Below are positions 36,892 to 53,529 of a DNA stretch of 64,000 nucleotides, piece by piece. Every line of letters starts with the position of its first letter. The stretch's first letter is position 1. The stretch is from positions 51,527 to 115,526 of the forward strand of contig JAEOTC010000030.1 of assembly GCA_016840035.1 (NCBI GenBank). The letters are read 5' to 3'. Source of the stretch: Candidatus Hodarchaeota archaeon. GTDB taxonomy: Archaea; Asgardarchaeota; Heimdallarchaeia; Hodarchaeales; Hodarchaeaceae. A program made the position numbers and the translations under genes. The notes below the pieces were generated by a model, which was not told where the DNA came from, made no database searches, and saw nothing but the letters and a program-made list of their open reading frames with translations.

Positions 36892-37344
36892 TTAACCTAG
36901 GATCTCGCCAATCTTCTTTGCGGCTTGTTTCATATCGAGGAATATCAACCCTAGTTTAACCGATCTGTTTGCTGAGGCTGTTAACACTGCTTTTGTGCCA
37001 GATTGAACTGAAATTAAATAACCATCCTTTCCTTCAACTAGAATGCGGTTCATTTCCCCCTTCCCTGTTTCCATGACAGCTCTTTCCCCTAAACTGAGTA
37101 TTGCTGCAGTCATCGCTGCAATTCGCACATCATCCAAATCACCTGGCAGTTTAGGTGGCCAAGAAGAAATAGGAAGTCCTTCAAGACTAACAACGCTTGC
37201 AAAGTCTATGGCTGGCAATTTACTAACAAATGCTTCCAAGACTTCAACTATTTCTTTATGCATTTGTAGATCTGCATCACTATCGGGAATGTACATTCTT
37301 ACACCCATGTAAACAAAATTCCGCACATATCTTTGCTTAGACAT
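36892..37344 (-). CDS. Roadblock/LC7 domain protein
   Basis: SVVSLEGLPISS, RIAAMTAAILSLGER, LGLIFLDM; real start may be ATG 37296. Confidence 0.92.
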   Translation of the reverse strand: MSKQRYVRNFVYMGVRMYIPDSDADLQMHKEIVEVLEAFVSKLPAIDFASVVSLEGLPISSWPPKLPGDLDDVRIAAMTAAILSLGERAVMETGKGEMNRILVEGKDGYLISVQSGTKAVLTASANRSVKLGLIFLDMKQAAKKIGEILG

Positions 37345-37588
37345 GTGAATTTAAGCTACTCTCCTATAAATATATTTCTAATTCCGAGATTTTTCCGAAA
37401 GAGAAGGTGTACAAGGAGAATAATCCTACTAACATCATTCTTTCCACTCAAAGTAATATAAGATGCTAATATGTAGATATTACGAGGAAAAATTCACTCT
37501 ATTGGCTTAAAACAAATTAGATGAATCGAGAGAAGTGGATAGCAAAAATATTTGATTTGCTTCCAAAATCGCTGTAGAATAAGAGGTT

Positions 37589-37864
37589 TTGAAATTCATG
37601 CCAAATGTACATCGACTAAACCTGCGTAATATCCGATCATCGCCTTCAAGTCTCCAAGTAGGTAAAAAAGGTCTCTCTGAATCCTTCCTTATTGAACTTG
37701 AGACCAGGTTAAAGAAGGAAAAGACTGTAAAAATCAAATTTCTGAAAAATTCTCCTTTCAGTTCGCGTCAAGAAGCCATATCTTCTCTAAGTTTAGTATT
37801 AGAAGGTAAAATTAGAGTTCTAGAAACACGAGGGTGGACAGCTATCGTACAAAAACAGAGCTAA
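37589..37864 (+). CDS. YhbY/CRM RNA-binding protein
   Basis: LQVGKKGL, VKIKFLKN, ETRG. Confidence 0.85.
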   Translation: MKFMPNVHRLNLRNIRSSPSSLQVGKKGLSESFLIELETRLKKEKTVKIKFLKNSPFSSRQEAISSLSLVLEGKIRVLETRGWTAIVQKQS

Positions 37865-38442
37865 CCACTCTGAGATGTTTTTGTACCATAAAGTTGTATC
37901 ATTAAGATTTCACGGGCTAGAGATTGAAAGGCACGTTTTATTCCAATTCCTGTTGTTGCTACTGTTTCATATATGGGGAATTTTGATAGGCTTAATTTTT
38001 CGACTAGTTCGGATCGTGTTAAAGCATTTTCAACATCGCGCTTATTTAATGTGATCACTAGAGGAATTGTAGTCCCCAATTCCTCCCCTAAATGGCCTGT
38101 TAATTCCTCAAAGGATTCAAGATTCTCTTGGATTTGATCTGATGAAGAATCCACAACAAATAATATCCCATCCACTCCCTGAATTACGATTTTGCGTTGA
38201 TGTTTATGCCTTTCTTGACCCGCAGTTGTATAAACATCAAATACTACTCCTGTTGTAGCTTGCATGGGTGCAAAGTCAAAGAAAAGAGTCCGGCCATGGG
38301 GATCTGCTAATTGAGTGAATTTTCCTTTTTCGAGCCCATCAACTTTATGATAAAGCCAACCAAGAGTTGTAGTCTTTCCACAAAGAGAAGGGCCATAAAA
38401 TACTATTTTAAATCTGTGACGACCTTCTGCGTCTTTTCGCAA
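37861..38442 (-). CDS. MglA-like small GTPase
   Basis: KIVFYGPSLCGKTT, RTLFFDF, TTAGQ, NKRD. Confidence 0.9.
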   Translation of the reverse strand: MRKDAEGRHRFKIVFYGPSLCGKTTTLGWLYHKVDGLEKGKFTQLADPHGRTLFFDFAPMQATTGVVFDVYTTAGQERHKHQRKIVIQGVDGILFVVDSSSDQIQENLESFEELTGHLGEELGTTIPLVITLNKRDVENALTRSELVEKLSLSKFPIYETVATTGIGIKRAFQSLAREILMIQLYGTKTSQSG

Positions 38443-38484
38443 TTAGCTTGGCTCCTTCGTTAACTAGGAGGTTAAGAGTATTGA

Positions 38485-39009
38485 TTAGAACTTTTCAAGT
38501 TCTCGCAATGCGGCTTCAAGTTCATCCTTTTCAAGGCCTGTGCGGACTTCGGGTGATTTGGAAGGAGTGCCTGGGATTGCTCGAGATGGTTGGCCTGCTA
38601 GAAATTCATCAAGAATAGAGCTAAGTTCTTCATTGGCTTTTCTCATAAGTAAACGAATCATACCGATATTTACTTCAGCATCTGAGATTATTGTTAAAAT
38701 TCCTCGTCCACAAGCACTGGCAAATATCTTTCCAGTGTCAAATTCTGAGGTAACTATGTCCAATCCACCAATTGTGAGATTAGATCCTTGTTCTGCTGAA
38801 GCCATGAAAACAGCGGAAGCAATCGCTCCAATACCATCCACATCGACAGAAACATAACTAAACTTGGAAACATGGGCGATCGTTAGGCCAGTCCGGTCGA
38901 CTAGAATTATTTTTCGAATACCGGGTTCACTTTTAATGATTTTACTGAGTACACTGTCAAACCTTCGAGGATCTATCAAACTAGTAATCTCCTGCTTGTC
39001 TTTTTCCAA
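38485..39009 (-). CDS. Roadblock/LC7 (MglB-like) protein with C-terminal helix
   Basis: LVDRTGLTIA, NIGMIRL; co-oriented upstream of the MglA-like GTPase. Confidence 0.9.
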   Translation of the reverse strand: MEKDKQEITSLIDPRRFDSVLSKIIKSEPGIRKIILVDRTGLTIAHVSKFSYVSVDVDGIGAIASAVFMASAEQGSNLTIGGLDIVTSEFDTGKIFASACGRGILTIISDAEVNIGMIRLLMRKANEELSSILDEFLAGQPSRAIPGTPSKSPEVRTGLEKDELEAALRELEKF

Positions 39010-43451: not shown

Positions 43452-44453
43452 TTGGTGACTCTTGCTTTGAGAGAAAAATACCAAAACGCAAGTAATGCGC
43501 TAAATAAACTAAGTAATGCAGCTACCATTAAAGCTAAGCATCTATCTGATGTGGTTATCAAATCTTACTCACAGTTCCAAGAGATTCGATATCAGAGTGA
43601 GACTGTACCTGATATTATTATGCACTCCGATAATAAAAAATCGAATCTAAAAGAAAGTGGGGAAATTCGCGTTGCTCAGTTATTATCAGCTATTCTATGT
43701 GATCAAATAACAGAGAAATCTAATAAGTTGACGGAGGATCTTGAATTTGGAAGTATGGATCTAGATCTTCGTTCGGAAATATTAGAGCTTCGTGAACAAA
43801 TAACAAGATTGGAAGAAGTAGTACAAGTTCAAACTAAACTCGCTAATGGAGCACCAGTTTCAACCGAGGGAATTAAGAACTTGCAAAAGAAGTACGATTC
43901 CCGAATTAAACAATTAGAGAATACGCTTCTTCGACAAGAGGGACGTTCACTTACTATAACAGCGTTAGATGCAACCCAAAAACCAAAAATATTTGGAAAA
44001 GGAAAATTTATTGATAATTTAGCTGATTTAGTTCTTGAACAAGGAAAAACTCTTCGTGCTAGCGCAGGTGGTTACATTTCCATGGCAAACCTGTATACTT
44101 CGCTGAGAGATAAAGTTCCAGATATAAAATTCTCTTTGAAAGATCTAGAAAAAGCCTGTAAACAGTTAACCAAGCAATCATTAATCGAAGGGATTTCTAC
44201 TCAATCTGGAATTAAAATTGTCGAATTTACGCCAGTTTCTCTGGGAAAAGATGCTCGAAGCATATTTAATATCGCAGTTGAGAAGGGTTACGTTACAATT
44301 GAGGAAGTTATGATTCATACCAAATGGGATCAACAGCGAGTAACACGAGTATTAGATAGTCTTGTAAATCAAAATATTGCACGAAAAGTATCATCACTTG
44401 ATTCGGGAGATCAATATTACTTCCCGGGGTTATATGGAGATGATGATTGGTAG
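43452..44453 (+). CDS. ESCRT-II Vps22/Vps36-like (EAP30 domain) protein with N-terminal coiled coil
   Basis: GGYIS..LY..S.KDL.KA.K.L, P.SL..D, KGYVT..W...R...VL..L, QYYFPG tandem winged helices. Confidence 0.85.
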   Translation: MVTLALREKYQNASNALNKLSNAATIKAKHLSDVVIKSYSQFQEIRYQSETVPDIIMHSDNKKSNLKESGEIRVAQLLSAILCDQITEKSNKLTEDLEFGSMDLDLRSEILELREQITRLEEVVQVQTKLANGAPVSTEGIKNLQKKYDSRIKQLENTLLRQEGRSLTITALDATQKPKIFGKGKFIDNLADLVLEQGKTLRASAGGYISMANLYTSLRDKVPDIKFSLKDLEKACKQLTKQSLIEGISTQSGIKIVEFTPVSLGKDARSIFNIAVEKGYVTIEEVMIHTKWDQQRVTRVLDSLVNQNIARKVSSLDSGDQYYFPGLYGDDDW

Positions 44454-44462
44454 GTATAAACG

Positions 44463-45356
44463 ATGGCTGAACCAGATAAGTTTGGAGGATTATTCCGTAA
44501 AATTGGAGATACAATACATATTGGAACTAAGAAATTCAAAGGAAAAGCAATCTTAAATTCCAAGTTTGATGATACTCAAGGTACTTCATTGATTCATCGG
44601 GTGAAAGCAGAAGACAATGACAATTTCAGAAAAATTGATGGTTTTATTGTAAAAGAACCAGAAAATGCAGTCTTGTTGCAATCAGGCGTATTAATTGGGG
44701 TTGCAGGTAGTGGGATCTATGAACTCGAGAAATCTGCTAAGCACCCAGGAAGTGAAATAATATGGGTCACAAAGCGTGAATTCATCATTAAATGGGGTAC
44801 ACCAGGAATTTATACTTCGGATAATGTAATGGTCGGATGTTGGGGGATTTCTCGTATGAGAATAGTCAATCCTAGAAATTTTATAATGAATGTAGTGTCA
44901 CACAAGCAGTATTATAGCGGAGATGAGTTGAAAAACTGGGTAAAACAGACAATAATAGCAGCCGTCAAGCATGTTATGACTCGTTATACTGTCCCAGAGC
45001 TATTAAAGGAAAGAAGAAGTCTAGAGATTCAAACACGATCTGAACTAGGCCCTGAGAGTTCAAGATGGGGTTTGGAATTGGTAGGTCTAGATATTGGGGG
45101 ATTCAAAGTCCCGGAGGAATATGAAACACTCCTAACTTATGAAATTGAAAAGCAAATAATTGAAACTCGTCAAGAGCTTGCTGAAGAACGAGATCAGCTC
45201 GATAGTACTTCTGAGAAGATCAAAAAATTCGAATTAATGCTTGAACAAGCTGATGAGATGTTTCTAGCAGGAAAAATTTCTGAAAAACGCTATAAGGAAT
45301 TAACCGATAAATACTCGTCAAAACTGGCTAAATTGAAGGCACAAAATTCGCAATGA
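44463..45356 (+). CDS. SPFH/band-7 domain protein with coiled coil and SHOCT-like end
   Basis: IVKEPENAVLLQSG..G.Y, IKWGT, RWGLELV.LDI..F..PEE, GKISEKRY. Confidence 0.8.
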   Translation: MAEPDKFGGLFRKIGDTIHIGTKKFKGKAILNSKFDDTQGTSLIHRVKAEDNDNFRKIDGFIVKEPENAVLLQSGVLIGVAGSGIYELEKSAKHPGSEIIWVTKREFIIKWGTPGIYTSDNVMVGCWGISRMRIVNPRNFIMNVVSHKQYYSGDELKNWVKQTIIAAVKHVMTRYTVPELLKERRSLEIQTRSELGPESSRWGLELVGLDIGGFKVPEEYETLLTYEIEKQIIETRQELAEERDQLDSTSEKIKKFELMLEQADEMFLAGKISEKRYKELTDKYSSKLAKLKAQNSQ

Positions 45357-45366
45357 TGGTTCTTGA

Positions 45367-47124
45367 TTAACTCAATTTGAGGGAAGACCCACATTCTGGA
45401 CAAACACTCATTCCAACTGATTCCATTTCTTGATAACAACTTTGGCATACTTCAGCATTACAGAATTCACATATAAATTTTTCTTGATCGGTTTTTACCC
45501 AATTACAAACCACACATTCGAAAGAAACATAAGTTTTCCTTATTTGCAGTTGCATTTTTCTAATGCTTATGGTTCCCATAATTTTTTGATGAGTTATTAA
45601 TTTTTCAAGAATTTTTATAACCACGTCAGATGATTCACCAACAAAATCTATAATCTGATTAAGAGGGATATTCGTTACTTGACTATTCTGAATGTAGTTA
45701 ATCAATTGATTTTCAGTTGAATTAAGAGTCATGGATACTTCTTTTGGAGAAGTCCAACCTGATTTCAAAGGCCCCTGTTTACAAAAATAACATTCTTCAG
45801 TTGTCTCGAGATTATATGAAAAGGCATAAGTTAATTGACAGGAATGACAGTTTCGGGGCAAATCTATAATAAAGGCAGCAATATTTCCACAAAATGGACA
45901 TTCATGCGTACTGTCAATTTTTCTGCAGTTAGAACACATTACTCTTCTACAGTTTTGACACTCAAAGTAAATGTCGGGATTAGTATATGAGGAGGTATCA
46001 ATTTGGCAAAATATTTCCAAATTTTCAATTCCCTTAATTAAAAAAGGATTTATCGAATCTCCGGCGACTAAACGAAGTCTCAAACGAGTAGCTATATTTT
46101 TTATCAGTTTTAATAATTTTAAAACGTTTAAGTTTAATTTTGAAGCTATTCCCTCAATATCGATTCCATTGCCAAACCAGGAGATAAGTGAAATCTTTGA
46201 TAATCGATCCTGTGTCAAACTTCCACCTAAGCTTTCATTAAGAATTTCTAATAGTTTTAATAAATCATCATACGCTAAATCGAACCTTGAGACCCAGAAA
46301 TCTAAAGGAATTTCTTCATAAACATATATATCCCATAAAATTCTTGAAACAATGTCAATCGTAGAATAAATGTAATTCCCATCTTTGGAACGTATGAAGC
46401 TTATGTCTTCTCTAATTATGTCAAGTAAATCCCGAGCCTGACTATCTGATAATGCAGTGAGTCTAGAAAAATCCATAATTGAAACTTCAGATGAAACAAG
46501 AAAGCTTGTAGTAATGAATCTCTTAATTGCTTTTGTTGATCGTTCGTTTAGAGAAGGAAGGAAGAAATCAAGGTGAGTTAAGTTGTATAATCTTTGCTTA
46601 ATAGGATCAATGTATCCCCTGAAGAGATTTCTCTTAGCCATTAAGTCTAAAACAGCTTCTAACTGATCATCAGTCCAATAAAGGTGATTCAACATATAGT
46701 CGAGATCGTGGGAAGGGTTTTTTCCAATGTACTTTGTAATGAACACAATCGCTCCTGATGGTGTAAAAAATCTGCGTTTAATTATATCAAAAAAACCTTC
46801 AATTTGTTGAACGTAATCATAAATAACAGGTTCTAGTAATTTTCCATCTATATTCATTATGTCTATTAGCTCACAGATATCAACCATCCCTCCAGTATCA
46901 AGAAACTGTTGAATTTTTTTATTAAGATAAGATTTTGGAATAAAATAGACATTATTGTAGTCTAGAAGACCATTTAATTCTTGTTGCTGTATTTTGTCGT
47001 ATATAAATGCAATTAGCTTCATTTTATCAGTTTCGGAAGAAAAATCACTGAGCCGAATAGGTGATTGTGCCGTCGAAACTGCTTGTAACCATTTTGACCT
47101 CTTACGTCTTTGCATTTTGCACAA
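45367..47124 (-). CDS. Winged-helix/PCI-repeat protein with two RING-like Cys clusters; candidate E3 ligase
   Basis: Repeated wH units; CQID..CQNC..CSNC..CPFC; Zn ribbon CHSC..CYFC; PCI-like wH; terminal CVVC..CEFC..CQSC..CPEC. Confidence 0.65.
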   Translation of the reverse strand: MCKMQRRKRSKWLQAVSTAQSPIRLSDFSSETDKMKLIAFIYDKIQQQELNGLLDYNNVYFIPKSYLNKKIQQFLDTGGMVDICELIDIMNIDGKLLEPVIYDYVQQIEGFFDIIKRRFFTPSGAIVFITKYIGKNPSHDLDYMLNHLYWTDDQLEAVLDLMAKRNLFRGYIDPIKQRLYNLTHLDFFLPSLNERSTKAIKRFITTSFLVSSEVSIMDFSRLTALSDSQARDLLDIIREDISFIRSKDGNYIYSTIDIVSRILWDIYVYEEIPLDFWVSRFDLAYDDLLKLLEILNESLGGSLTQDRLSKISLISWFGNGIDIEGIASKLNLNVLKLLKLIKNIATRLRLRLVAGDSINPFLIKGIENLEIFCQIDTSSYTNPDIYFECQNCRRVMCSNCRKIDSTHECPFCGNIAAFIIDLPRNCHSCQLTYAFSYNLETTEECYFCKQGPLKSGWTSPKEVSMTLNSTENQLINYIQNSQVTNIPLNQIIDFVGESSDVVIKILEKLITHQKIMGTISIRKMQLQIRKTYVSFECVVCNWVKTDQEKFICEFCNAEVCQSCYQEMESVGMSVCPECGSSLKLS

Positions 47125-47276: not shown

Positions 47277-47609
47277 GTGAAAGAAACTAAGTTTAAATGC
47301 CAATTTTGTGGGTATGTTCCTCATTCACATGAACAACCTGGCACAGGTTCTTGGTATTGTCCTAGATGTGGAAAAAGAACAACAATTCGACTAAATGTCC
47401 CACGACCAAAGAAATTCAGTCAAAAACCTCCCCAATCTCGTCAAATCTCTCGTGATCAAATTTCTAGTAAGATTTACAATGAACTTACGAAAGGAAAGGG
47501 CCCAGAATTTGGTTTGAAAGAACCTTACATCAAACCAATGATCCAACCAATAAAACCCAAGATAAGAAAAGAGGTTAGAATTTTTTCTCCTTCAAATAAT
47601 AATGATTAA
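47277..47609 (+). CDS. Small Zn-ribbon protein with disordered basic tail
   Basis: CQFCG..WYCPRCG. Confidence 0.65.
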   Translation: MKETKFKCQFCGYVPHSHEQPGTGSWYCPRCGKRTTIRLNVPRPKKFSQKPPQSRQISRDQISSKIYNELTKGKGPEFGLKEPYIKPMIQPIKPKIRKEVRIFSPSNNND

Positions 47610-48856
47610 CTTTTTTTTGTTTTGAATCTAATAATAATTCTCTTCTCATCATCGTCAATTAAAGAACTGACGGTTATACGATCTCGATCTTTTAGAATCT
47701 CTCCTACCGGAACATCACCTGGAATTAATGTATTTCCTCTGAACCCGATGAAATCTTTCTTGAATTTTCGTTTTAATACGGTAAAGATGGTTCTACATTT
47801 TGATTTAGGATTAATATTAATTGTAGTCGGATTTTGGCAATACATAGAGGAATCTCCGCAAACCAAGCATTCTGGATCCTTTTTCAAATCAAACGAATTA
47901 ATAGTGCCAGTTAATGCCGAATATATTGTCAAATCAGGAATTCGGAATCGTTCTGAATCAATTAGGGTCTGGAAATACTTTCGACTTTTTTCTGGAAAAT
48001 GGTTCAATTTATCTAGAAAGAGAGTTTTAATAATTTCTTGTGATTGAATTCCACTGGTTACTGCATTAACTGTAATTAAGCTGGGAACATGGTACAATAC
48101 AGTTTGTATAACCTCTTTTTCATCAAAAAGAGGAAAATTATATTTTGATGCACTTTCATTTGCGAGTTTTGTCAGTTTGAGTGCATCTTCAGAGGAATTT
48201 TCATCAGGTTCCCTTTCATTGAGAGTATGAAATTCGTAAAGAGCTTTCCATGCACAGTGCTCCCTAATTCTAGGAGTTCCTACAAGTGTACATGGAGCAG
48301 TTAAAAGACGTGTTTCTTCTGGTGGATGAGGGGAATCACATGCTAAACATGCGGTGTTCTTAACATCAATACTTTGTACTTGTCCAAAATAACCATCAGT
48401 TGCAGAATCTATAAACGGTAAAGACAGTTCTATTGCATGTTCGTTAATATATTGACGTGCCAGAAAATTATCAACACATCCAGAAATAATGTCAGCCTCC
48501 TCAAATATACTGAAAGGTAACGATTGAATAGTGTCAGAATATGCGTCAATATCAATGGAAGAATTAAATCGATCTTTGATTACTTCCTTTGCAACACGAG
48601 CTTTATTTTTTCCAATATCAGATCGGGAAAATAGCAATTGCCTATTCAGATTCGAAAATTCAATAGTATCCATATCAACAAGTATCAACTTTCCAATACC
48701 AAGTAATGCTAAATTCTTAGCTACTTCCCCCCCAGTGCCTCCAAGCCCAATAATCAGCACACAACTATCTTCGATTATACTCTGATCCCAGATGGAGAGT
48801 CGTTCCTGGCGATCAAATACAGAATCTGAGGGAATCGAGTTCATTGAGATTTCCAT
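47606..48856 (-). CDS. Ubiquitin-like activating enzyme E1 (eukaryote-like UBA3/UBA2 type)
   Basis: FDRQ, GLGGTG, DMDTIEFSNLNRQ, catalytic PCTLVGTPRIREHC, CxxC pairs, C-terminal ubiquitin-fold-like domain. Confidence 0.92.
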   Translation of the reverse strand: MEISMNSIPSDSVFDRQERLSIWDQSIIEDSCVLIIGLGGTGGEVAKNLALLGIGKLILVDMDTIEFSNLNRQLLFSRSDIGKNKARVAKEVIKDRFNSSIDIDAYSDTIQSLPFSIFEEADIISGCVDNFLARQYINEHAIELSLPFIDSATDGYFGQVQSIDVKNTACLACDSPHPPEETRLLTAPCTLVGTPRIREHCAWKALYEFHTLNEREPDENSSEDALKLTKLANESASKYNFPLFDEKEVIQTVLYHVPSLITVNAVTSGIQSQEIIKTLFLDKLNHFPEKSRKYFQTLIDSERFRIPDLTIYSALTGTINSFDLKKDPECLVCGDSSMYCQNPTTININPKSKCRTIFTVLKRKFKKDFIGFRGNTLIPGDVPVGEILKDRDRITVSSLIDDDEKRIIIRFKTKKS

Positions 48857-48879: not shown

Positions 48880-49209
48880 TTATCCCCCTTTTATCTGATC
48901 AGGAACTATCATCAGAAGAGCGTTTTCTTCAATATTGTATGAAGCAAGATTATTTGATGGATTCATCCTTCGTCCTTTAAATAAAAGTGCAATTGGTACA
49001 ACTTCAGGAATATTAAAAGCATCACGAGCCGCAGAAAGTGCTTGAAACACTGTGCCGTTAATATTGATGTACTTTTCACGAATATTTTGATCGGGTGGAA
49101 GTTGTGGATCCTTAAAGCGGACTTTTATCATACGTTCAATAGTATCCGATGGTGTCCCCGGGGAGCTGACATTTGAGTCCCAGACCACATCTTTTTTTCG
49201 ATTACTCAT
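48880..49209 (-). CDS. Ubiquitin-like modifier ending in GG, with N-terminal extension
   Basis: Beta-grasp pattern (IKVRFK, LLFKGRRM, LASYNIEE), C-terminal KGG-stop, adjacent to E1; ATG 49209 after AGGTGA. Confidence 0.88.
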   Translation of the reverse strand: MSNRKKDVVWDSNVSSPGTPSDTIERMIKVRFKDPQLPPDQNIREKYININGTVFQALSAARDAFNIPEVVPIALLFKGRRMNPSNNLASYNIEENALLMIVPDQIKGG

Positions 49210-49229
49210 TTTTTTCACCTTGCTTGTCC

Positions 49230-50018
49230 TTATACATAGAATAAGCGTTCGATTTCGGCTAATACAGTAATAAGATCAATACGACCTTTCGCATAATCTT
49301 CTAAAGGTCCACGAATCAGAGGGTATCTTGAAAGAACTTCACTTTCGAGTCCTATCGGGTAATTTTTCTTTCTCTTAATTGTAAACGGAATAATTTCTCC
49401 CGTTTGAGCATAAAAATTTATCTTGATTTCCTTTTTTGAATATGTGGCATCGTAGCTTTCCAATATTTGTCGAATTAATGGATCTTTTTCTTTGATTATG
49501 GTATCTGAAACAGAAGCTATCGGACTAGGATCGAGTTTCTGAGGGATTTGTTTTTCTGATATCTGGTAGATTTCTTCTAGTACGTCTAAAACTGAGCTTG
49601 TTCCAGGTTTCCAATTTTTCATTGTTTGAAGATCAATAATCTCACAATCTAATACTTCTCGAAGGGTATTTGGACCATCGATGAATGGTTTGTCTGGTAA
49701 ATCATCAAGAACAATTAATAATGGAAATGCGTACTGTCCAACCTGCATTTTAACACGAATTTTGCCTACTTCTTCTCCTACTAATTCCCCTGGAAAATTC
49801 TCAAGGATTTTTTGGGATTCTTGGTATAATGTATAGTAGTGTTCAGATTCAACTTCTTCGTCAACTGAACTTTCGTCAACGGCAATACCCTGTGGTTTCT
49901 TGAGATAATTTGTTAAATCACAATAATCACAATGAACAGGACGAAGAGAAGAAGGTTTTCCTGACAAAGGAGCACCACATCCATTGCACTGGGCAACATC
50001 TGTTTCGAGAGCAGTCAT
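49230..50018 (-). CDS. Zn-ribbon plus UEV/RWD-like (inactive E2-fold) protein
   Basis: CNGCGAPL..CDYC; LPDKPFI..LQTMKNWKP..SVLDVLEEI matches the UBC-fold pattern without HPN. Confidence 0.6.
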   Translation of the reverse strand: MTALETDVAQCNGCGAPLSGKPSSLRPVHCDYCDLTNYLKKPQGIAVDESSVDEEVESEHYYTLYQESQKILENFPGELVGEEVGKIRVKMQVGQYAFPLLIVLDDLPDKPFIDGPNTLREVLDCEIIDLQTMKNWKPGTSSVLDVLEEIYQISEKQIPQKLDPSPIASVSDTIIKEKDPLIRQILESYDATYSKKEIKINFYAQTGEIIPFTIKRKKNYPIGLESEVLSRYPLIRGPLEDYAKGRIDLITVLAEIERLFYV

Positions 50019-50338: not shown

Positions 50339-50890
50339 ATGTCTGATCTACATTCCAGACGATTAAGGGAAGAATTTAAGCGAATGCTAAAGATTTATCC
50401 CCCAAAAAGTGCGAACATAAAGTGGGTGATTGTGGATAATGATCTTCATCGCTATTCTGCGACAATAAAAGGGAAAGAAGGAACTCCATATGAAAATGGG
50501 GAATGGAAAATCACTATCGATTTACCACCCGAATATCCGTTTAAACCTCCAATTGTAAATTTCATCACACCAATCTGGCATCCCAATATTGCGATCGGTG
50601 AAACCCGATGGAAATGGGGTTCTAATGTGTGTTTGAGTCTGATAAATTGGAACAATATTGGTGAACCCGGTGGATGGAAGAAAACTATAACACTACCTAG
50701 CGTATTTGAACATATTGAAATGATGCTGGATGTGTATCAGAGTTCAGGAGATTCTGATTTTCCAGAATACCTTGTCGATCCTGGGGATCCATTCAATCCA
50801 GAAGCTGGAAAAATAATGCAGTCTAATTTTGACGGTTTTTGGGAAAAAGCTGTAGAGTGGACAGAGAAATTTGGGAAGAATAAATCCTAG
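50339..50890 (+). CDS. Ubiquitin-conjugating enzyme E2
   Basis: RRLREE, GTPYENG, PPEYPFKPP.V.F.TPIWHPNI, catalytic VCLSLI, DPFNPEA. Confidence 0.95.
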   Translation: MSDLHSRRLREEFKRMLKIYPPKSANIKWVIVDNDLHRYSATIKGKEGTPYENGEWKITIDLPPEYPFKPPIVNFITPIWHPNIAIGETRWKWGSNVCLSLINWNNIGEPGGWKKTITLPSVFEHIEMMLDVYQSSGDSDFPEYLVDPGDPFNPEAGKIMQSNFDGFWEKAVEWTEKFGKNKS

Positions 50891-50947: not shown

Positions 50948-51514
50948 ATGACCAACAAATATCCTCACGAAACTAAAAGTCTGAATAAAAAATCAGATGA
51001 AGATAAAATAGGCGATATAAACGACGAAACAATCAGTTTAAATGCTGAAACTAATTCTGTCATGATAACTCACAAAGCTATCGATGAGATTACGAATTTT
51101 TCACTAAACGCTATGCCAAAAGAGGCGATTGGACTACTTAGTGGAAGGGAAATCAGACCTAGAGAACTATTAATAACGAAGGGTCTATTTGTGACAGAGG
51201 GCGAGGAGTATTCGGTGTCCTTTTCTGAAAGTGATTTTCAGATTTTTGACCAAGTATCCAGTCCAGAATTTTGTGTTGGATGGTGGCACTCTCATCCAGG
51301 ATTTGGACTTTTCTTATCACAAACGGATATTACCACTCACATTTTTTCCTTCCAACTCGTTCAACCTCTCTCTGTGGCACTTGTAGTGGATCCTATGGAT
51401 ATTGGAGACGATGGTATTGCTAAATACAAGTTTTTCCAAATCGTTGGAGATTCACGAAATAGAGATTTTCAATATATTGAAATCGCAAGTTATCTATCAG
51501 TATCTAGTGAATAG
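50948..51514 (+). CDS. JAB1/MPN+ metalloprotease (Rpn11/CSN5-like deconjugase)
   Basis: E(AIGLL), VGWWHSHPGFGLFLSQTD JAMM motif, ALVVDP. Confidence 0.93.
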   Translation: MTNKYPHETKSLNKKSDEDKIGDINDETISLNAETNSVMITHKAIDEITNFSLNAMPKEAIGLLSGREIRPRELLITKGLFVTEGEEYSVSFSESDFQIFDQVSSPEFCVGWWHSHPGFGLFLSQTDITTHIFSFQLVQPLSVALVVDPMDIGDDGIAKYKFFQIVGDSRNRDFQYIEIASYLSVSSE

Positions 51515-51599: not shown

Positions 51600-52382
51600 A
51601 TGATACTAGATGATCTTCTATTGGGTATTTTTCTCTCCTTTGGGCAATTCTTCCTGCAAGGAGAATCAGCCGGACTCTTAGATACTATTATTGTACTTTT
51701 AGGACCAGGATTAGTATTATTTTTTACATTTTACTTACTATGGGCTGGAAGAAGGAAGAATCATAAAATTATCAATGTATCGAAAGATGCTCTTCTTGAA
51801 ATTTTCTCTAATGAATTTGATGATCTAGTAACTGATCAATTGAGCTCTAATGGTGGACTTTTATTTCCTAAGTATAAGAGAACATCTAGTATTCCTTTTA
51901 AGGACTTTAGAGTTGTATTTGCACTAGAGGAACGTCATTTAATGCTCTCGGTAATAATTTCATGGTTTTCAGGAGCAAATGACTATATTGCAGTTCAAGG
52001 TAACGCAAAAAAAGGGAAATTACCTACGAAGATTCAGATTATTCCAAATCATGAAGAAGGACAGATTAAGAAGCACCAAGACTTACTTTTTGAATTGAAA
52101 GATATTAAGTTGAATTCTGAATTATTGGATCAGTTTTTTCTCATGAAAGCAACATCAGTTAAGATGGGAAGCTTCTTTCTCAAGGATAAACCTCTATTAA
52201 AGCAAATTTATTCCATTCGAAATTCACTAGTTCGTTTATCAATTGATTCTACCGAGGATCCTGCTATTAGACTCTATTGTAGAATAAATAAGGATTTAGA
52301 CCTAAAGAAGCTGCATAGAGTTTTTATATCGCTTGTAGAAAGGGTAAATCAAGTAGCGGATAAAAAAGTGATGAGGAAATAA
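51600..52382 (+). CDS. CCDC47/DUF1682 (PAT complex subunit)-like membrane protein
   Basis: TM helix followed by GRRKN..I......L....F, then L.ERH.ML..I......D.I, like the CCDC47 juxtamembrane domain. Confidence 0.6.
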   Translation: MILDDLLLGIFLSFGQFFLQGESAGLLDTIIVLLGPGLVLFFTFYLLWAGRRKNHKIINVSKDALLEIFSNEFDDLVTDQLSSNGGLLFPKYKRTSSIPFKDFRVVFALEERHLMLSVIISWFSGANDYIAVQGNAKKGKLPTKIQIIPNHEEGQIKKHQDLLFELKDIKLNSELLDQFFLMKATSVKMGSFFLKDKPLLKQIYSIRNSLVRLSIDSTEDPAIRLYCRINKDLDLKKLHRVFISLVERVNQVADKKVMRK

Positions 52383-52403: not shown

Positions 52404-52967
52404 TTATAAAGTCTCAATCTTTTCAGTTACTCTTTGTCGAAGCCATTCTAATCCTTCTTCAACATTGAATCCTGTTTTAGCTGAAGTAGGTACAATCGCA
52501 TATGAATGTGTTGTGACTTTGTGGAGATTGAGGGATCTTGCTACTTCACCCGCAGAAGCAGCGTTTTCTAAATCCTGTTTGTTTGCCAGAACAAGAATAG
52601 GAATGTTTTCAACCTTGTCGTTATCTAAGACATATTTCCATAATTCAGCCTGAGCTTCGTCAAAACGTTGTCTATCATTAGAATCTATAACATAAACTAT
52701 CCCCATGGAACCAGCCATATAGCTCTCCCAGAGTGATTCACGAAAAGCTTCTTGACCTCCAATATCCCATGATATAAATCGGACATTCCCAGAACTAAAC
52801 TCATCAACATTCATACCGAGTGTTCGAAAGGTGCTATCATCAAATTCCCCAGATGTGATTCTTTTAACAATCGTTGTTTTACCTGCGTGATCCAGCCCAA
52901 GCCAGGCTATTTTCACCGTTAATCGTTCTCTTGCGAATTTTGAGCGCAATTTTGTAAGGAAACTCAT
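52404..52967 (-). CDS. Arf-family small GTPase
   Basis: GLDHAGKT, TLGMNV, WDIGGQ, NKQD, TSAK; N-terminal amphipathic helix MSFLTKLRSKF. Confidence 0.93.
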   Translation of the reverse strand: MSFLTKLRSKFARERLTVKIAWLGLDHAGKTTIVKRITSGEFDDSTFRTLGMNVDEFSSGNVRFISWDIGGQEAFRESLWESYMAGSMGIVYVIDSNDRQRFDEAQAELWKYVLDNDKVENIPILVLANKQDLENAASAGEVARSLNLHKVTTHSYAIVPTSAKTGFNVEEGLEWLRQRVTEKIETL

Positions 52968-52980
52968 CGATGATACCTCT

Positions 52981-53529
52981 TCATTTTCTCTGTATTTGCT
53001 TACTTTGAAATCTCTCGCTCATCCATTGCCAAGGTTCATCGACGCCTTCTCCAGTAAGAGCGGAGCATGGATAAACCCCAAATGTTCGTGGACGTTCTGC
53101 CATTTCCGTTTCCAATTCAAGAGTTTTGACAATATTGTCTAATGACATTGCAACATCGAGATCTTGCTTATTTGCCAGAAATAGGAATGCAGAGTCTTCT
53201 GGTGCCCATTGAATAACATTCTTGAGCCATTTCGCTGCTGTTTCGACCTTATCTCTATCAGCTGAATCGAATACGAAAACCACCCCTGAGGCCTCTGAAA
53301 CAAAAGGTTCCCATAAACTAGTAGGGTATGTGGGTTGTCCCCCTAGATCTACAGCCATTACCTCAAGTTCCCCTATTTTCAACGTTTCAATATTCATGCC
53401 CATAGTAGGAACTGTTTCTAAATCCTCATGACCTTTTAATCGTTTAACTAAAGTTGTTTTTCCTGCGTTAGCTAATCCGACGAAAGCTATTTGATTTTCG
53501 ATTTCTCGACCAAATAATTTTGTTGGCAT
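52981..53529 (-). CDS. Arf-family small GTPase
   Basis: GLANAGKT, PTMGMN, DLGGQ, NKQD, CSALTGEG. Confidence 0.92.
   Translation of the reverse strand: MPTKLFGREIENQIAFVGLANAGKTTLVKRLKGHEDLETVPTMGMNIETLKIGELEVMAVDLGGQPTYPTSLWEPFVSEASGVVFVFDSADRDKVETAAKWLKNVIQWAPEDSAFLFLANKQDLDVAMSLDNIVKTLELETEMAERPRTFGVYPCSALTGEGVDEPWQWMSERFQSKQIQRK

Follow-up and report, generated by a model that had tools for sequence, protein, structure and literature searches.

Ubiquitin-type systems of Asgard archaea and their link to the endosomal sorting complex required for transport (ESCRT) are established, and the UFL1 entry IPR018611 serves as a marker of their ligases (E3s) (PMC9192718). In Caldiarchaeum subterraneum, operons encode ubiquitin, an activating enzyme (E1), a conjugating enzyme (E2), a RING E3 and an Rpn11-like JAMM protease (PDB 6FNO), the last of which matures the ubiquitin precursor of the same organism (PMC6043591). 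With respect to the modifier UFM1, published work follows its partners UFL1 and DDRGK1 back to Asgard archaea and found UFM1, UFC1 and UFSP2 in eukaryotes only (PMC10183829), while a survey that relied on structure reports nine Asgard clades with Ufm1 homologues (Nat Microbiol 2026, PMC12962969). Here we describe a gene for a ubiquitin-like protein (Ubl), and the conserved cassette around it, in a 64,000-nucleotide stretch of contig JAEOTC010000030.1 from the Candidatus Hodarchaeota archaeon assembly GCA_016840035.1; this whole stretch is termed the window. The Ubl is very probably a conjugatable protein modifier of the ubiquitin type in this Hodarchaeales archaeon, drawn from a small family seen in Asgard archaea only, with the neighbouring genes as its putative enzymes.

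The Ubl gene is carried by the minus strand, the plus strand of 48880-49209 being full of stops, and is defined by two features.

48880..49209, minus strand: Ubl gene, 109 amino acids from the ATG at 49209, or 112 from the GTG at 49218, with the N-terminal tail M4-R29 and the beta-grasp core I31-P106.
49215..49220, minus strand: Shine-Dalgarno-like AGGTGA, of presumed function, 5 nucleotides 5' of the Ubl ATG.

The ATG at 49209 is most likely the start, giving a product of 109 residues, because the GTG at 49218 belongs to the AGGTGA site; residue numbers in this report are those of the 112-residue open reading frame 48880..49218. The peptides that the original prediction had quoted for this gene are all present on the minus strand (KVRFK at residues 32-36, VFQALSAARDAFNIP at 57-71, LLFKGRRM at 78-85, GRRMNP at 82-87, LASYNIEE at 91-98 and LMIVPDQIKG at 102-111), and the UFM1 and ubiquitin segments that had been given as their counterparts are correct, the UFM1 stretch being 100% identical to database UFM1. 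The frame ends in IVPDQIKGG and is followed at once by TAA, and the C-terminus is thus a di-glycine with no propeptide. The view that the modifier needs no maturation therefore holds for the window gene but does not extend to its family, in which GG is invariant and several relatives carry 1-7 residues beyond it; the family thus includes precursors that need processing. The stop of the upstream gene lies 20 nucleotides from the Ubl ATG, and the Ubl stop 23 nucleotides from the start of an E1 gene, short spacings that point to an operon of these three genes.

AlphaFold2, supplied with an alignment of 26 sequences, models residues 30-106 as a beta-grasp domain with a predicted local distance difference test (pLDDT) score of 93-95, and leaves the terminal GG flexible. 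Three fold searches were made: Foldseek against the PDB, VIA as a second look (996 chains) and VIA run exhaustively over 48,161 representative chains. Each of them listed ubiquitin, ISG15, SUMO, NEDD8, Dsk2, Rad60 SLD2, FAT10 and the Caldiarchaeum ubiquitin, and the neighbours of the Ubl in the ESM Atlas are without exception Rad60-SLD or ubiquitin. Profile comparisons agree with the fold. Each of 26 relatives of the Ubl matches both the Rad60-SLD (PF11976) and the ubiquitin (PF00240) family of Pfam (best E 2.5e-7 and 2.9e-6, respectively), and alignment of the family with ubiquitin by hhalign has a probability of 83% (P 8.5e-6).

The family itself can be recognized by three motifs, FKDPQLPP, NIPxxVPIALLxKGRRxNP and IVPDQIKGG. 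An exhaustive phmmer search of 1.84 billion representative sequences returned a handful of single-domain clusters that belong to it; the remaining matches were repeat proteins resembling polyubiquitin, and there the repeats inflate the E-values. Close relatives bear the label Hodarchaeales or Hodarchaeota, and more distant members, with 42-54% identity to the core, carry the labels Freyrarchaeum, Jordarchaeaceae, 'Sigynarchaeota' and Promethearchaeota. At E<=1e-8 the family profile found one copy in 19 of the 20 sampled genomes of the genus, in one of two genomes of the sister family and in one of about 280 other Asgard genomes. A second, partial match to the family, distant from the cassette, occurs in a single genome of the genus (G056:C1:1389201-1389350, profile positions 45-94), within an 82-residue open frame.

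It could be argued that, among archaeal lineages, the family is instead the one nearest to UFM1 and supplies the Asgard UFL1/DDRGK1-like ligase with its natural modifier; eukaryotes would then have retained the modifier and the winged-helix ligase and exchanged the E1, E2 and protease for UBA5, UFC1 and UfSP. We consider this proposal unlikely, although part of the sequence evidence favours it. Pfam Ufm1 (PF03671) matched none of the 26 family members at E<=10, and the Ufm1, UFC1 and Peptidase_C78 (UfSP) profiles had no match in the genome that contains the window (87% complete). Across 400 Asgard genomes nothing rose above the Pfam Ufm1 cut-off; the best matches were partial, at 15-20 bits, and were treated as noise rather than as UFM1 homologues, an aspartokinase ACT domain and an uncharacterized long protein being among them. 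A custom hidden Markov model built from 120 database UFM1 sequences gave the window Ubl -0.6 bits, equal to ubiquitin. With hhalign the probability of the match to UFM1 was 4-10% (best 9.8%, P 0.0033; P range 0.003-0.01), far below that for ubiquitin, yet the alignment spans the whole domain (73-77 columns, 27-30% identity). The core matches UFM1 in length, the two align all the way from first strand to tail, both proteins have a long first hairpin with DPxLP, and by our own comparison they have in common a 'beta5-Pro-x4-Gly' tail of the form [IV][IV]P-x4-G. UFM1 ends in a single glycine that is exposed by removal of a short propeptide, unlike the di-glycine of the window Ubl. No UFM1 chain was among the top 50 matches listed for any of the three fold searches.

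Pairwise statistics, expressed as Smith-Waterman z against 2,000 shuffles, also speak for a UFM1 connection. The Ubl core scores z 6.25 against UFM1, a value reached by none of the 2,000 shuffles, and z 6.0-7.3 against three UFM1 orthologues; other members of the family range from 0.6 to 9.4. In comparison, ubiquitin against UFM1 gives z 1.0, and ubiquitin, the canonical ubiquitin of the same genome and SUMO all stay at or below 3; neither ubiquitin nor SUMO has a detectable likeness to UFM1. The core is, however, at least as similar to ubiquitin (z about 7.6-7.68). The claimed resemblance to both UFM1 and ubiquitin is thus above chance (z 6.25 and 7.68), and, judged by sequence, the family is about equally distant from the two, with SUMO somewhat further away for the window Ubl (z 3.9-5.2 against SUMO1), although some relatives show real similarity to SUMO as well.

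The phylogeny also contains a signal in favour of UFM1. A maximum likelihood tree of 27 rows (LG+C20 PMSF; NEDD8, ISG15, URM1 and ATG8/12 were left out) has a split, with support of 95/90, that separates ubiquitin, ubiquitin-like domains, canonical Asgard ubiquitin and SUMO from the Ubl family, UFM1 and two Ubls encoded elsewhere in the same genome on contig C3, and it joins the family to UFM1 at 90/79. Approximately unbiased (AU) tests nevertheless leave standing a union of the family with SUMO (p 0.19) or with the C3 Ubls (p 0.17), and the tree is a lead rather than a result, because UFM1 and the Ubl family have long branches and the tree lacks many other families of Ubls. One of the C3 proteins, of 117 residues, is in fact the best UFM1-like sequence of the genome, its hhalign match to UFM1 reaching 42% (P 2.6e-4); like the UFM1 precursor it has a single glycine with a two-residue extension. 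UFM1-likeness is therefore not peculiar to the window gene, and the closer C3 paralogue belongs to a classical RING-type cassette. Taken together, the Ubl resembles eukaryotic UFM1 weakly and not preferentially. The original prediction had described a protein that mixes UFM1, ubiquitin and SUMO traits; this is borne out as sequence similarity, but profiles, fold and enzymology speak against a specific affinity for UFM1, and on most tests there was no preference for UFM1 over other beta-grasp families. The idea stays alive because of the 90/79 node, the pairwise statistics and the presence of a UFL1 homologue in the cassette.

The partners of the Ubl, all from the same window, are the following.

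47606..48856, minus strand: E1-like activating enzyme, 416 amino acids, ThiF 177 bits, with the catalytic-Cys motif APCTLVGTPRIREHC.
49230..50018, minus strand: protein with a zinc ribbon (N-terminal CxxC...CxxC) and two RWD/UEV-like, inactive-E2-like domains, encoded immediately upstream of the Ubl.
50339..50890, plus strand: UBC-type E2 with HPN...Cys (WHPNI...VCLSL), UQ_con 86 bits, divergent from the putative three-gene operon.
50948..51514, plus strand: JAMM/MPN+ metalloprotease with intact HSHPx7SxxD, JAB 33 bits and Prok-JAB 29 bits.
45367..47124, minus strand: candidate E3, 585 amino acids, with UFL1-like winged helices, zinc fingers, a DDRGK1/PCI-like winged helix and a C4C4 RING-like finger.
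51600..52382, plus strand: conserved membrane protein, 260 amino acids, at the edge of the cassette and present in 24 of 24 genomes of the order.

The catalytic cysteine of the E1 stands in a canonical context of the CT[LI]xxxPxxxxHC type, as read from the translation, and its bit scores are 122 for UBA1, 118 for UBA2, 103 for UBA3 and 58 for UBA5; the enzyme is canonical, UBA1/2/3-like rather than UBA5-like. UBA5, the E1 of UFM1, is non-canonical. The relatives of the E2 in the comparison were E2 K, D2 and T, and no match to UFC1 was found for it. The E1, E2 and protease are thus all of the ubiquitin type, where UFM1 has UBA5, UFC1 and UfSP of the C78 class, which is a further argument against the family as the nearest archaeal lineage to UFM1.

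Sulfur carriers, too, are served by E1s of the ThiF family and can end in GG. This raises the question of whether the Ubl is a beta-grasp protein that is not conjugated at all but carries sulfur, as ThiS, MoaD and SAMP do, or stands alone as an adaptor domain, and sub-threshold matches of the E1 to ThiF and MoeB in NCBIfam might be taken in the same sense. Such a role is extremely improbable. The E1 has a eukaryote-type catalytic cysteine motif and is closest to UBA1, UBA2 and UBA3, a Pfam scan of it found no rhodanese domain, and the fold matches of the Ubl are ubiquitin-type modifiers, not ThiS or MoaD. Moreover, a UBC E2, a JAMM protease and a RING-like protein are conserved together with the Ubl.

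The flexible N-terminal tail bears on the possibility that the Ubl is an archaeal counterpart of SUMO, with the tail serving in chain formation or recognition. As had been proposed, such a tail exists: M4-R29 (26 residues, with 5 Ser and 2 Pro) is predicted to be disordered by AlphaFold2 (pLDDT 46-63), and it includes a conserved KK. The tail motif KKDV[VI]WD is kept across the genus, DNA changes there being mostly at third codon positions with conservative V/I and K/R replacements, and indels in the tails of orthologues are in frame. The third-position bias indicates that the tail is translated, and it led us to reject a start at Met30, which would give the tail-less 83-residue product annotated for some relatives; in distant relatives, moreover, that position is occupied by leucine. 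The segment 'TPSDTIER...LPPDQN' (residues 21-45; 49075-49147, minus strand) matches ubiquitin 18-41, with PSDTIE and PPDQ identical. Its interpretation as a remnant of ubiquitin 19-40 left by a partial duplication ('PSDTIE...LPPDQ', residues 22-44) was rejected, because PSDTIE varies in orthologues and the match is out of register with the fold; its main effect is to raise phmmer scores against polyubiquitin.

A SUMO identity draws support, besides the tail and the GG end that SUMO and the Rad60 SUMO-like domains (PF11976) likewise have, from Pfam, in which Rad60-SLD is the best match of the window Ubl and the sole family above its cut-off (25.0 bits, cut-off 23.8), from the presence of Rad60 SLD2, SUMO1 and SUMO2 among the fold matches and from the place of UBA2 among the best matches of the E1. 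It should be emphasized, however, that the Rad60-SLD and ubiquitin models overlap and belong to one clan, and a lead of 3.5 bits between them therefore says little. Pairwise similarity to SUMO1 is below that to ubiquitin or UFM1, and the tree groups SUMO with ubiquitin, apart from the family, even if the AU test leaves their union standing. The cassette has a single E1 gene in place of the SAE1/UBA2 pair, and a JAMM protease in place of a Ulp/SENP cysteine protease. A SUMO-like modifier is thus, in our judgement, very improbable.

The top Foldseek match of the zinc-ribbon protein encoded upstream of the Ubl is FANCL, a protein with a double-RWD domain; used as a single-protein query, its matches are confined to this order, and a complex prediction with the Ubl core scored 0.01, which weighs neither for nor against binding. 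The 585-residue protein has its UFL1-like part at the N-terminus, zinc fingers in the centre and the RING-like finger at the C-terminus. Pfam E3_UFM1_ligase left the window gene unmatched when run against the genome, and the homology emerged only with a family profile, which in searches of the PDB matched human UFL1 (E 6.5e-9 and 1.5e-7) and DDRGK1 (E 0.021); among family members, Pfam recognizes E3_UFM1_ligase in 5 of 10 and PCI in 9 of 10. We know of no RING in eukaryotic UFL1. Gene order makes this candidate E3 a putative partner of the Ubl. As to the 260-residue membrane protein, Pfam CCDC47 (PAT complex) gave weak matches in 6 of 11 orthologues (best E 9e-4, below cut-off), and a profile search of the PDB returned neither CCDC47 nor any other match.

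The composition of the cassette is well conserved. The 585-residue protein occurs beside it in the same order in 21 of 21 genomes of the genus, and the zinc-ribbon/double-RWD protein, the Ubl, the 585-residue protein and the membrane protein each occur in almost all genomes of the genus, in identical order where positions are listed; the membrane protein adjoins the cassette wherever positions can be compared. A divergent Hodarchaeales contig retains the zinc-ribbon protein, Ubl and E1 genes in series together with a protein of about 600 residues. A contig labelled Freyrarchaeum/Jordarchaeia retains Ubl, E1, E2 and JAMM, preceded by an unrelated zinc-ribbon protein.

The UFL1 homologue (E 6.5e-9), with its DDRGK1-like winged helix, invites a more far-reaching proposal, namely that the cassette is a surviving 'proto-UFMylation' system in which a UFM1-related Ubl is served by canonical E1 and E2 enzymes and by a single-chain ligase that unites UFL1, DDRGK1-like and RING parts. 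Such a system might act at a membrane, because the conserved, weakly CCDC47-like membrane protein is encoded next door. The proposal is also in keeping with the tracing of UFL1 and DDRGK1 to Asgard archaea and the finding of UFM1 in eukaryotes only (PMC10183829), and with the Ufm1 homologues of nine Asgard clades (PMC12962969). Those homologues are likewise restricted to Asgard archaea and are said to be Ufm1-like in structure despite low sequence similarity; the best structural matches of the window Ubl are ubiquitin, ISG15 and SUMO. UFL1-like genes, on the other hand, are already an E3 marker of ordinary Asgard ubiquitin clusters (PMC9192718). We thus view a surviving proto-UFMylation system as a doubtful interpretation; if true, it would show how eukaryotic UFMylation arose and what Asgard UFL1 and DDRGK1 did before UFM1.

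Returning to the preferred interpretation of a ubiquitin-type modifier, several observations weigh against it. The window Ubl falls short of the Pfam ubiquitin cut-off (21.5 bits, cut-off 25.4), and in a manual alignment the positions of ubiquitin Lys48 and Lys63 are occupied by residues other than lysine. There is no UFL1-like gene within 7 kb of the Freyrarchaeum-type cassette, and the UFL1-like partner is therefore not universal. Finally, assignment of the 585-residue protein as an E3 leans on weak RING matches of its C-terminus (E 0.02-0.1), those to TRIM32, MAT1 and NOT4 having E 0.02-0.05.

Intact motifs, together with conservation of gene order, suggest the following mechanism. The single-chain, canonical-type E1 would adenylate the terminal glycine of the Ubl and then form a thioester with it on the cysteine of PCTLVG. 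The Ubl would be handed to the cysteine of the divergently encoded UBC-type E2, and its ligation to substrate lysines would be aided by the RING-like finger of the UFL1-homologous 585-residue protein. The JAMM protease, a candidate deconjugase by virtue of its sequence, would take the Ubl off again and might also mature precursors in those relatives that have residues beyond GG. The zinc-ribbon/double-RWD protein may act as a non-catalytic, E2-like adaptor or reader.

How, then, does the locus compare with those already described? With the Caldiarchaeum operons it shares a single-chain E1 with a catalytic cysteine, a UBC E2, a JAMM protease of a kind able to mature precursors, and organization as an operon (PMC6043591). 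It differs in that the window Ubl represents a distinct family, in which the first hairpin is long and a 26-residue tail is present, in that the place of the small RING E3 is taken by a 585-residue UFL1/DDRGK-like winged-helix protein with a RING-like end, and in the addition of the zinc-ribbon/double-RWD and membrane proteins. Elsewhere in the genome, contig C3 (1981-7317) does carry a classical Caldiarchaeum-type operon, in which two Ubls (with the ends IPHSTAG-WR and IPVSTAG) precede an E1, a UBC E2, a JAMM protease and a RING protein. The Asgard canonical ubiquitins and ubiquitin-ESCRT clusters (Heimdallarchaeota ubiquitin HeimAB125_14240; PMC9192718) resemble the locus in their Asgard origin, ubiquitin-type enzymes, UFL1-type (IPR018611) protein, UEV-like partners and nearby Vps22/36-like gene. 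The canonical ubiquitin of this genome is, however, a separate gene: contig C184 (236-1722) encodes, beside a 344-residue E1, an 80-residue canonical-like ubiquitin that scores 54.9 bits in Pfam, as against 19.6-21.5 bits for the window Ubl, and that needs processing, since it ends in TTGG-TVK. Nor does the window hold a full ESCRT cluster.

Several neighbouring genes may be noted. On the plus strand, 43452-45356, just upstream of the cassette, encodes an SPFH/Band 7 protein and a Vps22/36-like (EAP30) protein that is greatly extended at its N-terminus; no further ESCRT genes were found among the genes scanned, at about 35.5-53.5 kb of the window. The gap that separates the E1 and UFL1-like genes holds, on the other strand, a putative 110-residue zinc-ribbon open reading frame (47277-47609, plus strand) with weak zinc-ribbon matches. 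The minus-strand regions 36892-39009 and 52404-53529 contain, respectively, a small GTPase between two Roadblock/LC7 proteins and a tandem pair of Arf-family GTPases; Roadblock/LC7 and GTPase genes are typical of the eukaryote-signature content of Asgard genomes.

Given that ubiquitin-type systems of Asgard archaea are already known, the existence of this Ubl is not in itself surprising. This Hodarchaeales genome nevertheless contains at least three separate systems of Ubl and E1, which implies that modifier diversification preceded eukaryotes. The window Ubl is, in addition, genetically linked to a UFL1 homologue that has a DDRGK/PCI-like domain and a RING-like finger. To the question of what role Asgard UFL1 and DDRGK1 play without UFM1 (PMC10183829), the cassette thus contributes the names of a concrete modifier, E1 and E2.
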